Assembly (NCBI GenBank): GCA_951406725.2
Contig: OX597814.1
Coordinates: 105,276,001 to 105,340,000 of the forward strand
From: Octopus vulgaris
Lineage: Eukaryota
Reading direction: 5' to 3'
Length of the DNA stretch: 64,000 nucleotides
Shown: positions 2,334-62,587 of the stretch, piece by piece
Numbering within the stretch: the first letter of the stretch is position 1
Layout: each line of letters begins with the position of its first letter
Made by a program: the position numbers and the translations under genes
Notes under the pieces: generated by a model
The model's database searches: none
Told to the model about the DNA's origin: nothing
Seen by the model: only the letters and a program-made list of their open reading frames with translations

Positions 2334-2655
2334 TATTATTTACATTTGACGGATATTTGTCCTCATCTTGTTTGTTGTTAACACAACGTTTCGGCTGATA
2401 TACCCTCCAGTCTTCATCCGGTGTCTTAGGGAAATTTTGAACCTGGGTTCTCATTCTTAAGGTATTTTCTGATGTTGTTGTTGTTATTATTATTATTATT
2501 ATTATTATTATTATTATTATTATTATTATTATTATTATTATTATTCAGGTTACTGCCTGGAATCGAACTCGGAATAACTACTACGCCATATGCCCGTGGG
2601 CAAATGTAAATAATGTAAATAATGTACATAATTCCTCGTCTCTTAAATATAGAAT
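2334..2655 (-). mobile_element. tRNA-headed small element carrying an HHR (SINE/retrozyme-like) with short inverted end
   Basis: Minus strand order is A box TGGCGTAGTAG, B box GTTCGATTCC, (AAT)n, then the HHR at 2425-2380. attatttacatttg near 2336 is inverted at ~2601. Confidence 0.6.
2380..2425 (-). ncRNA. Minimal HHR, core mutated (CGGATGA)
   Basis: gacac-CGGATGA-a-gactg..cagcc-GAAA-cg-TT-gtgtt, with palindromic stem III AACGTT. Confidence 0.6.
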
Positions 2656-3345
2656 TGGCTTATTATTGTTTGTATTTTCAGTTACATATATGTGGGCCGC
2701 ATCAACATTTTTTTAAGTGCTTAGGACCTCGATAGGTCTAAATCCTTCCCTGTGTCTGTGTGTGTGTGAGTGTGTGTGTGTGTGTAGTGTGTGTGTGTGT
2801 GTGTGTGTGTTTACTTTTATCTCCAGAAGTATGAAAGAGACTCAAGAGTCAGAGGTTTCGTTCAGTGACACTCACTGGCGTAGCCATAGTGTGTGCAGCC
2901 CAGAGTAGCCCTTCTGTTTGACGTCCCTGGAACCCAAAATAACTGCGCAATGCCAGCAGTAGACCCAAAAGTGCCGCCCCTGCCATTCAGTGGTGGTACT
3001 TTGGTGAAACTAGTCTCAAATTAGACTTCATTTATGAAGAGCGACTAAAATTAATTTAATTCCTGAAACTCTCAACCCTCGAGTCACTCCGTGACTTCCA
3101 CCTGTTAGTATACATACACACACACACACATATATATATATATATATATATATATATATATATATATATATACTTACACACCCCATATACATATATACAT
3201 ACATACACACACACACATATATATATATATATATATACTTACACACATCATATACATATATATACATACATACTCACACACACACACATATACATATATA
3301 TATATATATATATATATATATATATATATATATATATATATATAT

Positions 3346-3570
3346 AGGGAGAGTTTACGAAAAAATCAAAAGACGAAGGCAGGTGGTGTACAAAGCAAAC
3401 AGATGTATTAGTATAACACTCAGGAAAAGAAAAAATCTTTTACGTTTCGAGCCTACGCTCTTCTACAGAAAGGGACACAGAAAAAAGCAGGGAGAGAAAC
3501 AAAGGGAGAAAAAAAGGAGAGAAAAAAACAAGGAGAGAAAAAAATGTGTGTAGAAGCTAACGATCTATTA
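3346..3570 (-). mobile_element. Small PLE-pLTR-like element with variant HHR (3437-3472)
   Basis: cttt-CTGTAGA-a-gagc-gtag-gctc-GAAA-cg-TA-aaag. Its 3' end abuts (TA)n. It is homologous to 22748-22926. Confidence 0.65.
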
Positions 3571-57799: not shown

Positions 57800-59840
57800 A
57801 AAAATAATATATATTTATATATCTATATTGTATACAAAATAATATATATATATATATATATATATATATATATACATATATAGATAGATAGATAGATAGA
57901 TAGATAGATAGATAGATAGATAGATAGATAGATAGATAAAACTTACTTGGAAGAGGATGCGTGGGGTTTCGTCATATAATGACAAAATAGTAAATAGAAC
58001 ATATGCATATATACATACATATATGTACGTACCTACATCTATATGTATATATACATGCATATATAGGTGCAAGACACCAAAAAAACGCCTTCGTTTCGCC
58101 TACTCCACGCTTCGAAACGCGGAGTAGACGAAACGGGGGCGGCTGAAGAAGGGGAATTTTCCTTGTGTCGTATGTTTTGTACAATGTTTTTTCGTTGTTA
58201 AAAAAAAATGTCCGTTTCCACGGTTCTGTTTTTATGTTTTCGTTTCTCATTGTGTTTGACGTTTTTTTGGTGTACTGCACCTATATATGCATGTATATAT
58301 ACATATAGATGTAGGTATGTACATATATGTATGTATATATGCATATGTTTTATTTACTATTTCGTTATATATATATATATATATATATATATATATAAAG
58401 AAATGAGATACTCTGAGATCTGGATGACTTTATATTTACAGATATTTATTAATATGTTACATGTTTTTATAAATCATATATCATATAATAGCACTTTCGT
58501 CCACTCTAGTGGAGTTGTCAAATAGAACTTTCGTAGGAATTTTGACTCTTTTCATAGTATTATTGAGTGTGTAGGGGTGGGGAGAGATATAAGATAGTAC
58601 AAGAGGGTTAAGAATGGGGAGAAAGTGAGAGATGGCGTGTGTGTGTGTGTGTATGTGTGCATGTGTGTGTGTGTGTGTTTTTGTATCTGAAAGGGTGTTA
58701 AAGAAAAAGAGAAGGAAAGGAAGAAGGAGAGAAAGAAGGAAAAATTTGTTGATATCTTTGCAGCTGGTTAGTCTTTCAATAATAAGCGATTCTTGGCTTT
58801 TAGCAATGGCAAATCCAGGTGGTCACTCCAAGGGGGAAAATATCACTTTTCAAAAAATTTTCTGGATTTCCTTTTTATCATTGTCTTGTGAGAGAGTGTG
58901 TGTGTATGTGCGCGCGCGTGTGTGTGGGGGGGTGTCTGTGTAGCTGAAAGTAGTGTCAAATGGGAAAGGAGTATGAAAGGAAGGAGGAGGAGAGAATGAA
59001 GAAAAAATGTGTTTACATTTTGCAAAAAAAAAGTGACATTTTGCTCCCCTTAGAGTGACCAGCTGGATTTGCCATTGCTAAAAGCCAACAGTAAAAAAAG
59101 TGCGGAAGACCTAACTGTAGTATGTGTGTCGACCTAATTGAAGGATCGGAGTTCTCCTTCAAACAGGTCAACATTTTAGTGTGAAAAACAACTTCACATG
59201 TTCTTCGGAAAACCTAATACAAAATACGTTTTACCAGAAGGCTGGTCTATTTCACTTTGCCTTTGATAAAATTTTCCAAAATCCCTTCAAGAGACATCAG
59301 CGTAGCTTTTCATTTCATATGCCTTCTGCAATTTCATATGTCATCAATCACTCTAATTATTCTTTTTCATAAATTTCAAAAGAAAAGCTGGAGAGAAATT
59401 CCCTATTCTTGTAGATATTATTTCCTTTTTACAACCCCAAATATTTCTACGGCTTTAAATTCACAGCAACTTTCCAACATGAGAAAATATAATTTCCTCT
59501 TGATTTCTAATGAAATGTCCAGAAACACTGGACAGTTACGGTAATGATTTTTTCCGTAGGTTAAGTGTGAATGTCAGAAGAGAGGCAAGGCACTGCGATT
59601 TACCATAACCAGGATTCCGTGTTCAAGAACAGTAAATACTAATTATACAATTTCATTGAAAAGCTTTGAGTTGGGACGGCTTAAATAAACTGTGTATGTG
59701 TGTGTGTGTGTGTATGTGTGTGTGTGTGTGTGTGTGTGTGTGTGTGTGTGTGTGTGTGTGTGTGTGTGTGTATTAAATAAAATGAGACTACATAACCAAG
59801 GCTGTGTGGAATTTTCAGGGCATTTATGAAGAGAAAGTTA

Positions 59841-59887
59841 GTCTTACAGCTGTTTCTTGGATATTAGGGATATCCCTTCATCAGAGG
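59841..59887 (-). ncRNA. Type I HHR (weak stem I) in a small element ~59772-59972
   Basis: ct-CTGATGA-ag-ggata..tatcc-aa-GAAA-cagctg-TA-ag. Confidence 0.6.
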
Positions 59888-62587
59888 GAAACGTAGAGTT
59901 CAATATAGGGACATATTTTGGAAAAGGATGGAAATATGGAATATAGAGGGAAATAGGAGAATGAAAGTAGAAATATATATATATATATATACACATACAT
60001 ACATACATACATACATACATACATACATACATACATACATACATACATAGACAAACACATGCATTTCGTGTTATGCTAAGAAGTGGTGCACGATATTTTG
60101 CAATGTTTTAACTGAGGAAGATCTTCTTATATATTGTATACACCTGAAACGTGCGTATTAAATGATTTCAAAATATCACTGTTTGGTTTGACTTCATTAT
60201 TACAATTATATGCGTTTGCGTGTGTGCGTGTGTGTGTGTGTGTGTGTGTGTGTGTGTGTGTTTGTGTGTGTGTGTATGTGTGTGTGTGTGTGTGTGTGTG
60301 TGTGTGTGAGTGTGTGTGTGAGTGTGTGTGTAAAAAGAAGAAATGGTACTTATGTTTACATGAAAACTTGAAAACACACAGACACACACACAACACACAC
60401 ACACACACACACATATACAGAGTGAGAGAGAAGAGAGACAGACAGACAGTCGGGTAACAAAATTTGTTGCATAACTAATGAACATTTACAGCCAAATTGT
60501 ATTAATATTTTCTGCACCGTTCTGAGAGAAATCCATTTTTTTTTTTCAAAATACATCAACACGAGACAACAAATACTAAATCGAAGAAGACACCAAGTGA
60601 TCCGAGCCCCTCATCGCCTATTTAGGTACCCAGTTATAAATCATTCACTATTCGTAGGCTGCCAATACATTTATATAAGGCATCGACGCACAGACTTTGT
60701 ATATTTCCCCTCCTCCTTCCCTATAAGCAAACCCTCGCTCTCTGACTATAAGACGCAGCTCTGTCGATGTTGATAGCTTCTAGCTGCCTTGCGGTGTTTC
60801 GTCGTGCATATTCTGCAGCTGTACGGCTTCGTAGCTTTAACAACAGACAGGAAATTGATTTTCTACCCCATTAAAGCTTTGTTTCATCGTCAATTTCATC
60901 CGAGTTCATTTCTCATCCTATTATTTCTCTTTAGTCTGCTCTACTTTAAATATCCTTTTCCATTGCCTCGAGATTATTGAAAGCGATTCTCTCTCTATCT
61001 GTGTGTTTGTGTGTGTGTGTGTGTGTGTGTGTGTGTGTGTGTGTGTGTGTGTGTACGTTTATGCATTAGTGTGTGAGTGCGTGTATATGTATGTATATAT
61101 ATATATATGTGTGTGTGTGTGTGTGTATATATATATAACTCACCCTCTCTCTCTCTCTCTCTCTCTCTCTCTCTCTTATATATATATATATATATATATA
61201 TATATATATATATATATATATATATATATATATAATTAAATATATATATATATACACGTATAAATATATTCATACACACACACATATAAAATTATATATA
61301 TGTAATATAAATATATTATATATATGCATATGTGTAGACATACATATGTATATTATATATATACATTATGTATATGATATTTATATAATATATATATATA
61401 TAATATACATATATATACTATATATATATCGTATGTATATATATAATATACATATATATGTGTATATACATATATATACACATGCCACAGACTTTCGTTA
61501 TATATGTAAATATTTACATATACATACACACACTCTCACACATACACACATACACAAGCAGAGAAGGAGAGAGAAAGAAGGAAGAAAAAGGAGTGAGAGC
61601 GTTATAGAGTTTGCAGCGTACGTTCAGATTTACTGATTGGTATATACGCTTGAATATAAACACAAAAGTGTTACAAAGTTCTCTACGCACGGTTTCATTG
61701 TGTGTGTGTGTGTGTTTGTATGTGTATGTGTGTGTCTGTCTGTGCGTGTCTGTGCGCGTGTATGCAAGGAACGAGAGTGAATTACAGAGAATTTCACATA
61801 TATAAAGATTTGCTGGATGATACTTTTAAACATTGGTAAACAAGAAAGAATGACCTGTATGTAATATGTGTATATATATATATATATATATATATATATA
61901 TATATATATATATATATATATATATATACGTGTGAATACGTGCGTATTTAAGTGTATACGTATATATTAAAGAAGGAAAGAGAAACATTAAGAAATACAC
62001 ACACACACACACATATATATATATATGTATACATATAAATACATACTTATCTATCCATTCATTTATATATGATTATATAGCCATATATCTATATATACAT
62101 ACACCCACACACAAATAATTATATTCAAACGCGCCCATATATACATCCACATATATACACATGGCTATATAAGCGTTATGGCTAAATAAAGTGGTTGTGT
62201 ATTGTTATGCTGTGTGGCCTATATAATATATATATATGCCTGAGTATCTCGACGCTACTTGAGTATAATTCGTAGCTAACGATGCTTATCATTTGCATCG
62301 TTTAGTGTTTTCATAAGGTTAATAGAATCTTCTTGAATACTATAACCGCATAGCTTCTGAAGAAGATCATCGAGGAAGAGGCGGGTGGGTGGTAGCAGCC
62401 ATAGTCGGAACTAATTGAAAATTGTTAATGGCAAATTGTAAATATCTAATGTTGAATAACGAATTTGTCGAAGACCGAGTGGAGTGAGTACCTTACTGCT
62501 GACCATCGTTCAACGAACCAGAATTTCCACCGACTAAAAATATTTCTTACTCAAAGACAAAGTACCCGAATTATGGCTTTATACGTA

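Follow-up and report, generated by a model that had tools for sequence, protein, structure and literature searches.

The hammerhead ribozyme (HHR) motifs in the window, by which is meant the whole 64-kb stretch of Octopus vulgaris DNA analysed here, belong mainly to the 3′ ends of Penelope-like element (PLE) families. It is highly probable, taken together, that this is their origin, that two further families (E and L) are copied in trans by Hydra-type enzymes, and that the Poseidon-type family C is additionally transcribed by Pol III and re-inserted. Eight of the 11 HHR families (six Hydra-type, one Neptune-type and one Penelope/Poseidon) are 3′ ends of protein-coding PLEs, either 5′-truncated or inverted, with longer copies in all eight running into an RT/GIY-YIG ORF. 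The original prediction had read the motifs as a swarm of non-autonomous RNAs and named units that are just 5′-truncated ends of a full-length PLE as its refutation, which applies to these eight families, nor is the machinery of the Naiad type that it named; what survives is a large and diverse PLE-tied population, the two units at 17405 and 57458 and, probably, the short form of the family at 2380.

The presence of HHRs in PLE ends, octopus Hydra elements and retrozymes as PLE parasites are already published, which explains the bulk of the finding, and the families may already stand in Repbase or Dfam. That a short HHR element with a tRNA-like head is tied directly to a coding PLE bears on which enzymes mobilise ribozyme SINEs and on the source of retrozyme promoters.

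Hammerhead motifs in the window and the genome

Sixteen of the 19 sites first listed fall into 11 repeated families (A, A2, B, C, D, E, G, J, K, L and M), which bears out the expectation of at least 10 distinct backbones. The estimate of about 18 HHR or HHR-like motifs holds for these 16 sites, and the cores or stems at 20997, 33879 and 41923 do not support a type I HHR. A genome search, weak here as it skips very common words, matched 20997 and 41923 only to themselves, and 33879 has the 3′ half alone and no complete HHR. Core and stems are intact in eight of the 19 copies (17405, 22251, 29566, 33235, 45604, 46232, 54895 and 57458), a core variant fixed in its family is present at 3437 and 22801, and six sites (2380, 22495, 24495, 47696, 48008 and 59841) hold decayed members of families whose HHR is otherwise proper. 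Two motifs were missing from the first list, namely an unnamed HHR at 60107..60160 (+ strand; core 60112), which matches the strict descriptor, and a second copy of family G at 49599.

With a strict type I descriptor the window yielded seven HHRs and 60 local dinucleotide shuffles yielded 0.13, and a scored descriptor in which loop III may be empty and the extra A of PLEs is tolerated gave 12 matches at a score of at least 6.5, against 0.48 (maximum 3) in 40 shuffles. The HHR at 57458 was read by hand, its extended palindromic stem III falling outside the descriptor. No hammerhead occurred among the best 150 of 455 Rfam matches to the window, nearly all of which were microsatellite-driven miRNA models, and a Pfam search of 11 window ORFs matched neither RT nor GIY-YIG. 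Repeat pairs within the window were taken from masked self-BLAST, since microsatellites otherwise dominate. Genome-wide family searches covered all but family B, 33879 and 60112, and family copies were chosen as best matches, which favours intact ends.

The type I HHR in its PLE form (CUGANGA...GAAA...NUH with stems I and II) is found at the family level in A, A2, B, C, E, J, K, L and M. Beyond what the pattern requires, stem I forms in 25/30 (vs. 19%) and stem II in 24/30 (vs. 30%), loop III is palindromic in 18/30 (vs. about 6%), and four of the ten stem II pairs of A-type HHRs covary; the conserved cores and covarying stems on which the original prediction depended are thus present. In monomer folding the hammerhead fold is rare (1/14 folded), and 17405 alone clearly beats its shuffles (z −3.2). 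In every family the spacing from the HHR to the one or two sharply defined 3′ ends that follow it is constant, and the 5′ ends of copies vary, often with an inverted copy. Most units had been described as abutting (TA)n, and this is true of the Hydra- and Neptune-type ends (e.g., 21/24, 18/22 and 23/31) but not of the family at 2380 (2/50).

By analogy with Poseidon biochemistry (PMC11167929), a PLE protein would nick AT-rich DNA and prime reverse transcription at two internal RNA sites; two such start sites would give two 3′ ends and the “tail,” and the short 3′ pieces would arise because reverse transcription likely stops early.

HHRs are not gathered around one PLE, as had been proposed, because their density is genome-wide and unrelated to the nearby element. 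Forty random 10-kb stretches (400 kb) contained 48 matches at a score of at least 6.5 (null 4–7), or 7.7 per 64 kb compared with 12 in the window, with 0–7 per stretch, and exact long-stem-II matches in the genome numbered 40,872 vs. 1,643 in the control. This is about one HHR per 10 kb, or about 250,000–300,000 genome-wide by extrapolation from the 400 kb. Given that 235 Rfam hammerhead matches were reported for the giant squid (PMC6962438), it is likely that long-stem-II forms escape standard searches.

Hydra-like and Neptune-type elements

The local autonomous element is the parent of family A, with an ORF at 30216..32872 (− strand) encoding RT and, C-terminal to it, GIY-YIG as the endonuclease in two frames that overlap at 32264–32354, a junction read through in copy L287. 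It possesses RWL (for RWK), DKT, and CxxC and CxH around E/N, has no CCHH, is 47% identical to P0001, a protein with a CxCX5C linker, and shows no similarity to the Poseidon ORF (E 0.22). Its 3′ UTR/pLTR (29350..30215, −) contains an intact HHR core at 29643 and ends at about 29514 and 29350, and its 5′ side (32904..33370, +) consists of a direct tail repeat (32904–33042) and an inverted copy of the 3′ end (33044–33370, HHR core 33240). All 30 of the best family A copies map to the 3′ end of the element, reaching variably into the UTR and ORF.

In family A2 (22052..22631), two 3′ ends from a second Hydra-like PLE are joined head to head, with an intact HHR at 22327 (−), a mutated one at 22498 (+) and the long tail on a single arm; an endonuclease ORF lies upstream in seven of 14 genomic copies. 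Family B (46200..47800) is a decayed Hydra PLE whose ORF remnants, including a CxCX5C linker, lie between inverted HHRs at 46314 (−) and 47699 (+). The 3′ ends of further Hydra PLEs are represented by J (45500..45850, −; core 45659), tied to a PLE ORF in loci L121, L122 and L281, by M (59790..59972, −; core 59884, stem I mutated in this copy), tied to one in L326, L328 and L330, and by K (54785..55100, +; core 54901), of which a decayed copy that has lost GAAA lies at 47999..48204 (+; core 48014). Family K has a 3′ UTR of about 2.2 kb and an endonuclease upstream in L303, L305, L308 and L309, with 2,579 candidates at the 3′ end vs. 125 at 2 kb upstream. K, M and D had been candidates for non-coding units and were dropped, as walking upstream reached ORFs. 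Family G (24495..24630, +; second copy 49487–49600, −), whose HHR has a stem II about 100 nt long, is old and decayed and stands outside the eight PLE-linked and two closed-unit families.

Assignment to Hydra rests on motifs and BLAST/HMM. A, A2 and J have GIY-YIG at the C-terminus, where CCHH is lacking and CxxC and CxH flank E/N; insertion into (TA)n and a canonical HHR are likewise seen, and the RWK/DKT pair is represented by the RWL and DKT of A, the sole Hydra-type family whose N-terminus was read. The CxCX5C linker is present in B and K (L305) and absent in A and A2, which are therefore filed as Hydra-like. C-terminal EN+ PLEs of the Hydra clade (Craig et al. 2021, PMC8557442), of which one octopus family, Hydra-1_Obim, is already curated, share with the window elements RT-GIY-YIG without CCHH, RWK-like and DKT motifs, CxxC/CxH, a canonical HHR and (TA)n targets. 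The window alone, however, holds at least six families, and differs in the missing linker of A and A2, a stem II of 30–100 nt, tails of about 125–200 nt rather than 30–40 bp, and 3′ UTRs of up to 2.2 kb.

The idea that most units are independent non-autonomous ribozyme RNAs moved by a nearby Naiad-type protein draws on the independence of the non-coding units E and L, and on Naiads targeting (TA)n and occurring in octopuses (PMC8557442), where inverted structures are a further shared feature. Naiads, however, survive in cephalopods as remnants only and have an N-terminal endonuclease, DKA and CxC, and no canonical HHR, none of which fits the window's element; GIY-YIG is C-terminal in the local ORF, the motif is DKT and the HHRs are canonical. 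As longer copies of eight of the 11 families lead into ORFs of other clades and HHR density is genome-wide, this idea is largely refuted and we regard it as very improbable.

Family D differs from the Hydra-like families in its parent. The frame in L383 has a CX2-5CxxC linker and a CCHH endonuclease after RT, motifs that place it with Neptune, and the D-type HHR lies 0.4–0.9 kb downstream of the endonuclease in 25 of 30 loci. In the copy at 3354..3560 (−) the HHR is minimal and core position 6 (3468) is U, a second copy lies at 22750..22925 (+; core 22805), and position A6 is U in all 34 and all 25 copies read. The natural PLE HHR variants of Lunse et al. may already include A6U. No head-to-head pairs occur among 87 D copies, so that this mark of insertion is not universal. 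Neptune PLEs (PMC4209133, PMC8557442) resemble D in linker, CCHH endonuclease, the extra A after A9, a palindromic minimal stem III and (TA)n ends, and differ from it at A6. With U fixed at this position, D would let nature's own variant show if cutting by PLE ribozymes is needed at all, and the young, intact A, A2 and E alongside the abundant, core-changed D offer test cases for HHR function.

Retrozyme-like families E and L

Family E, a closed and non-coding repeat of 535 bp, occupies 17261..17843 (−) with 1.1 units set in (TA)n and an intact HHR core at 17479, and L, a repeat of the same kind of about 476 bp, lies with 1.3 units, also in (TA)n, at 57199..57799 (−; core 57508, the extended palindromic stem III noted above). 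The longest ATG ORFs are 46 aa in E and 59 aa in L. In all 30 loci of each family the sequence never leaves its own unit, each end running back into its own start. Arrays of E with the 535-bp period are found on many chromosomes at 96–99% identity, including five consecutive units at C5:45.93 Mb, and L units are permuted, with two consecutive in L090, each presumably with its own HHR. Both families carry the insertion marks of PLEs, namely inverted arms and two fixed ends. E and L are closed, retrozyme-like non-coding units that likely borrow PLE enzymes.

Tandem transcripts of E and L would be cut by the HHR into monomers or circles and copied in trans. No autonomous parent of either was present among the loci examined, where relatives are diverged (about 60% identity); the endonuclease lying beside E in L040 is part of a J-like element. 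In animal non-LTR retrozymes (PMC7229834; bioRxiv 10.64898/2026.07.22.740005), thought to use PLE enzymes, the tandem units are likewise short and non-coding, and each has a single type I HHR. E and L differ in that a long stem II, insertion at (TA)n, and inverted arms and two-ended tails of the PLE type can be seen directly. Octopus receives no mention in the retrozyme account of PMC7229834.

Alternatively, the arrays could be local DNA tandem duplications of monomers by unequal crossing-over, involving no RNA multimers, circles or ribozyme activity. This was proposed for vertebrate retrozymes, where eight of nine tested dimers remained uncleaved (bioRxiv 10.64898/2026.07.22.740005), and Poseidon insertion in vitro works without HHR cleavage. 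Against it, the E core is kept in all 30 copies, and the arrays start variably, stop at two fixed ends and have inverted arms that are themselves longer than a unit (L057, L090), which is the pattern that a reverse-transcribed template exceeding unit length should leave, and we think this explanation unlikely. Contigs from four runs of guessed type cover the E unit; such contigs show neither ends nor circles.

Family C and its tRNA-like head

The copy of family C at 2324..2657 (−), a short Penelope/Poseidon PLE 3′ end, comprises an inverted tail (2612–2657), an internally deleted tRNA-like head from 2595, (TAA)n, a minimal HHR (core 2420, with U4 mutated) and a tail. The parent is represented by a 569-aa frame in L461 with a DKG RT, no zinc-finger linker and, at its C-terminus, GIY-YIG with CCHH-type residues; its RVT_1 match (E 2.7e-6) is below the cut-off. 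It has a pLTR with HHR, a 30–40-bp tail at one end and an inverted 5′ copy, and none of 20 loci showed a full-length parent bearing a direct 5′ pLTR. A same-strand C follows the ORF in 18/30 loci and in 16/20 longer loci, 12 of which have an inverted C at the 5′ break. The PAc element of Anolis (Penelope/Poseidon; PMC11167929) likewise combines DKG, no zinc-finger linker, a C-terminal GIY-YIG, a pLTR with a minimal HHR, two 3′ ends separated by about 30 nt and an inverted 5′ copy, and C differs in its tRNA-Arg-like head after the stop codon, where many copies start.

This A/B-box head lies ~30 nt after the parent's stop codon, ahead of the HHR. Among the 30 best tRNA loci compared, its best genomic match is tRNA-Arg(TCG), at 59.8 vs. 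27 ± 4 shuffled, with other isotypes nearly as good (53.5, 52.8), and the Rfam tRNA model gives it 11.7 bits, under the cut-off of 29; relaxed ARAGORN calls tRNAs everywhere and is uninformative. Type 2 promoters are expected to start Pol III transcription immediately ahead of the A box. Consistent with this, 25/58 copies have their 5′ end at −8 to +12 of the head and only four extend >20 nt upstream. Exact counts are 1,988 at the head start vs. 702 and 846 just upstream, a 2.3-fold step (1,988/846) between patterns that differ in mutability, one permitting C/T and one catching a single variant.

A less favoured but still plausible explanation, to which we would give about one chance in three, is that all units, short C included, are passive 5′-truncated PLE ends, with the head a dead passenger and the pile-up a truncation hot spot. 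In its favour, sequence upstream of the head persists in about 40% as many copies, the tRNA score is weak, and the head starts at a short palindrome, which could itself cause truncation or inversion. It leaves E and L unexplained, however, as each keeps to its own unit; the pile-up sits at the expected Pol III start, three of four aligned copies of the C unit have no run of four T, and a 240-bp tandem array containing the head exists.

Short C has the tRNA-like head of a tRNA-derived SINE and a 3′ end shared with the autonomous Poseidon, and the 25/58 copies starting at the head suggest a SINE that arose from its own PLE; the short form is probably a non-autonomous unit. Pol III would initiate at the head, giving a short transcript to be re-inserted by the family's own Poseidon enzyme; uncut RNA would serve as template, since the head lies 5′ of the cut site. 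That the C PLE captured a tRNA-Arg-derived Pol III promoter and spawns its own HHR SINE, beside a thriving D family with A6 changed to U, is a proposal whose chances we judge to be evenly balanced. If true, the C SINE has a PLE parent, not a LINE, and shows a route to schistosome-type ribozyme SINEs and promoter-bearing retrozymes. Schistosome SM-alpha/Sj-alpha, as far as covered by the parts of a review consulted (PMC6765202), similarly place a Pol III promoter before an HHR in tandem and dispersed copies; no parent retrotransposon is named in those parts, whereas the head-HHR-tail unit of C forms the 3′ end of a protein-coding Poseidon.

C as a stand-alone SINE was dropped, L137 joining it to a Poseidon ORF. 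On the proposal above, the SINE would number tens of thousands of copies. Head-to-head pairs made up 6/28 incidental C insertions, compared with 1/246, 1/182 and 3/161 in ordinary SINEs.

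Hammerhead Ribozymes in the Window and the Genome

The hammerhead ribozyme (HHR) population in this octopus DNA is real and abundant, and known biology of Penelope-like elements (PLEs) explains most of it. The window, in which microsatellites are abundant, holds seven HHRs by a strict descriptor (0.13 in shuffles) and 12 by a scored, PLE-tolerant descriptor (0.48 in shuffles). Judged one by one, eight of the sites in the original prediction are intact, two have a variant core fixed in their family, and six are decayed members of proper HHR families, and three (20997, 33879 and 41923) are unsupported. 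The 16 supported sites form 11 families, which bears out the predicted figure of at least ten backbones. It had also been proposed that the HHRs gather around one local PLE. A random sample of 40 10-kb stretches, however, gave 48 matches (null 4–7), seven of them from a single tandem array, or 7.7 per 64 kb, so the window is only ordinary or mildly rich.

Throughout the genome (2.8 Gb, 227 contigs), an exact pattern with a long stem II matched 40,872 times vs. 1,643 with a reversed control, and one for minimal HHRs matched 635 times vs. once in the control. For the giant squid, 235 Rfam hammerhead matches have been reported (PMC6962438). Stems outside the pattern's demands form in 25, 24 and 18 of the first 30 pattern matches, far above cross-family controls, and HHRs of the type found in the local PLE family show stem II covariation at 4 of 10 pairs. 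Predicted monomer folds are mostly not hammerhead, something that is expected because PLE HHRs are thought to work as dimers (PMC4209133). The short-pattern matches are dominated by a sister family (genomic loci L340-L366), whose minimal HHR has a canonical core and a GAGC/GCTC stem II and which ends in (TA)n.

Hydra-Type Penelope-Like Elements

The PLE protein of the window (30216..32872, minus strand) has its nearest named homologues in Argonauta and Octopus bimaculoides, and shares with the Hydra clade traits listed in PMC8557442, the supplement of which includes Hydra-1_Obim. These traits rule out a Naiad identity, and the original prediction of a Naiad-type partner thus took the wrong clade. 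Unlike Hydra, the protein is without a CxCX5C linker, and the element is therefore filed as Hydra-like. Its layout is textbook, with an HHR in the 3′ UTR, the tail as a direct repeat ahead of the start codon, and an inverted copy of the 3′ end. Among the 30 best genomic copies of this end, all 30 reach variably into the UTR and ORF and halt at one of two 3′ ends. Hydra-type "tails" between the two 3′ ends (window 29350-29514 and 22052-22191, and the loci of the closed units E and L) measure ∼125–200 nt, far longer than the 30–40 bp known from other PLEs.

PLE ends account for eight of the families, whose independence had been over-read. Among the other Hydra-type families, A2 has an endonuclease ORF upstream in 7/14 copies, B has ORF remnants between two HHRs of the same element, and J runs unbroken into an endonuclease in L121/L281 and L122/L282. 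Family K shares a common non-coding stretch of 2.1 kb followed by a Hydra endonuclease, and 3 of 12 upstream loci of M carry an endonuclease.

Closed Retrozyme-Like Units

The idea of independent non-autonomous units does hold for families E and L, which are closed and non-coding. The 535-bp unit of E (site 17405) occurs on many chromosomes within (TA)n, in arrays of up to five units with 96–99% identity, inverted arms and two 3′ ends ∼125 nt apart, and none of 30 loci passes from the unit into other common sequence. The ∼476-bp unit of L (site 57458) behaves in the same way. As judged from sequence, both fit the definition of non-LTR retrozymes in PMC7229834 and bioRxiv 10.64898/2026.07.22.740005. 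No parent element for E or L was found among the loci compared, and no paper on octopus retrozymes was found in the literature searched, most subscription papers and Repbase being outside its scope. The (TA)n targets together with the inverted arms point to Hydra-type enzymes as those probably serving both families.

Diverged relatives of E and L (∼60% identity) directly adjoin other copies (L074, L039/L048), which suggests that further families of retrozymes exist and that insertions are nested within a shared (TA)n. A retrozyme-like array in the random sample (L171:2300-4520; G000:C1:20.00 Mb) has seven HHRs with a period of ∼359 bp, five one way and two inverted.

A tRNA-Headed Poseidon End

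Family C (site 2380), one of the two parts worth following, runs in the copies read from a tRNA-like head through (TAA)n and a body to a minimal HHR and a tail, and body or HHR comes next in all 29 B-box heads examined. The best match of the head among 30 tRNA loci compared is the genome's tRNA-Arg(TCG), with a low Rfam score. A Poseidon thumb-domain query gave 9,424 candidates in the genome. Same-strand C lies ∼30 nt past the stop codon at 18/30 loci and at 16/20 longer loci (the two sets overlap by 4 loci), and a Poseidon frame of 569 aa has DKG and no linker; C is therefore the terminal repeat (pLTR) of a Penelope/Poseidon element. No full-length 5′ end of this parent was seen among the Poseidon loci read. 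Only 2/50 of the C 3′ ends lie in (TA)n, and they have two lengths ∼30 nt apart, often with one arm long and the other short. Head-to-head pairs make up 6/28 incidental and 12/20 selected insertions, vs. 5/589 for three ordinary SINE families, and at L137 a truncated Poseidon ORF is joined to an inverted C.

Nine BLAST pieces of C were present in a 400-kb random sample, and a copy number of some tens of thousands is suggested. Of the 5′ ends of 58 copies that extend to the HHR side, 25 lie at −8 to +12 of the head, four further upstream, and 29 inside or after it, some of the latter only because the alignment is interrupted at (TAA)n; exact-pattern counts rise from 846 and 702 upstream of the head to 1,988 at the head. 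The short copies may be Pol III-initiated RNAs re-inserted by the parent's enzyme, a reading with roughly even chances, and a truncation hot spot would be about as probable a cause of the pile-up at the head. The combination of a Pol III promoter and an HHR is known from schistosomes (review PMC6765202), and PMC8967140 describes how Penelope elements and tRNA-SINEs have expanded in octopus, without ribozymes. Neither a tRNA-derived promoter in a pLTR nor a SINE with a PLE parent was found in the literature searched, which left out most subscription papers and Repbase.

An ATG within the C HHR core (window 2385-2420, minus strand) opens a short frame running through the tail, a situation resembling that in Anolis Poseidon, where the HHR contains the start of the ORF.

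Proposed Mechanism

In Anolis Poseidon, two internal reverse-transcription starts have been shown and the main template is uncut RNA (PMC11167929), and the two 3′ ends per family match these starts. By analogy, reverse transcription would begin at two internal sites, giving two 3′ ends per family. Uncut RNA would serve as template for C, in keeping with the retention of the C head, which lies 5′ of the cut site. Insertions of E and L that exceed one unit fit tandem or circular templates.

A Neptune-Type Family with a U6 Core

Family D (sites 3437 and 22801) is joined to a Neptune-type ORF, and its endonuclease query gave 8,117 candidates in the genome, with open frames of up to 1,181 aa. The D HHR is present at 25/30 endonuclease loci, and core position 6 is U in all 25, as in 34/34 matches among another set of loci. 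At L368-L396 (e.g., G000:C44:61444 and C35:164841), frames of >1,100 aa give the family an appearance of recent activity despite the U in place of A6. This core is the other part worth following; a literature search for hammerhead "A6U" gave nothing on it by title or start of abstract, the likeliest source of such variants lying outside the search. No head-to-head inverted ends were present in the Neptune-type insertions checked.

Other Repeats in the Window

Three families of ordinary tRNA-type SINEs, used as controls, have many copies and no HHR (240-416, 3603-3924, 5510-6376, 19949-20386, 41986-42190, 45308-45470, 50436-51095 and 63319-64000), and direct tandems are frequent in one of them (40/161). 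Two decayed pieces on the minus strand (36670-37213 and 40509-41042) have no Pfam match, and we take them to resemble the restriction-like endonuclease at the C-terminus of R4/Dong-type LINEs; a fragment at 42409-42801 (plus strand) presumably resembles the C-terminus of an RTE-type LINE. A repeat occurs in two copies with 77–84% identity (18312-19172 and 55170-56426), the second of which contains a frame (55454-55825) that we assume to resemble a transposase. A short frame at 10046-10510 (plus strand), with two C2H2 zinc-finger-like motifs and weak Pfam scores, is possibly the end of a LINE. Short inverted repeats at 26835-26972 and 58086-58141 have no tie to any HHR family.
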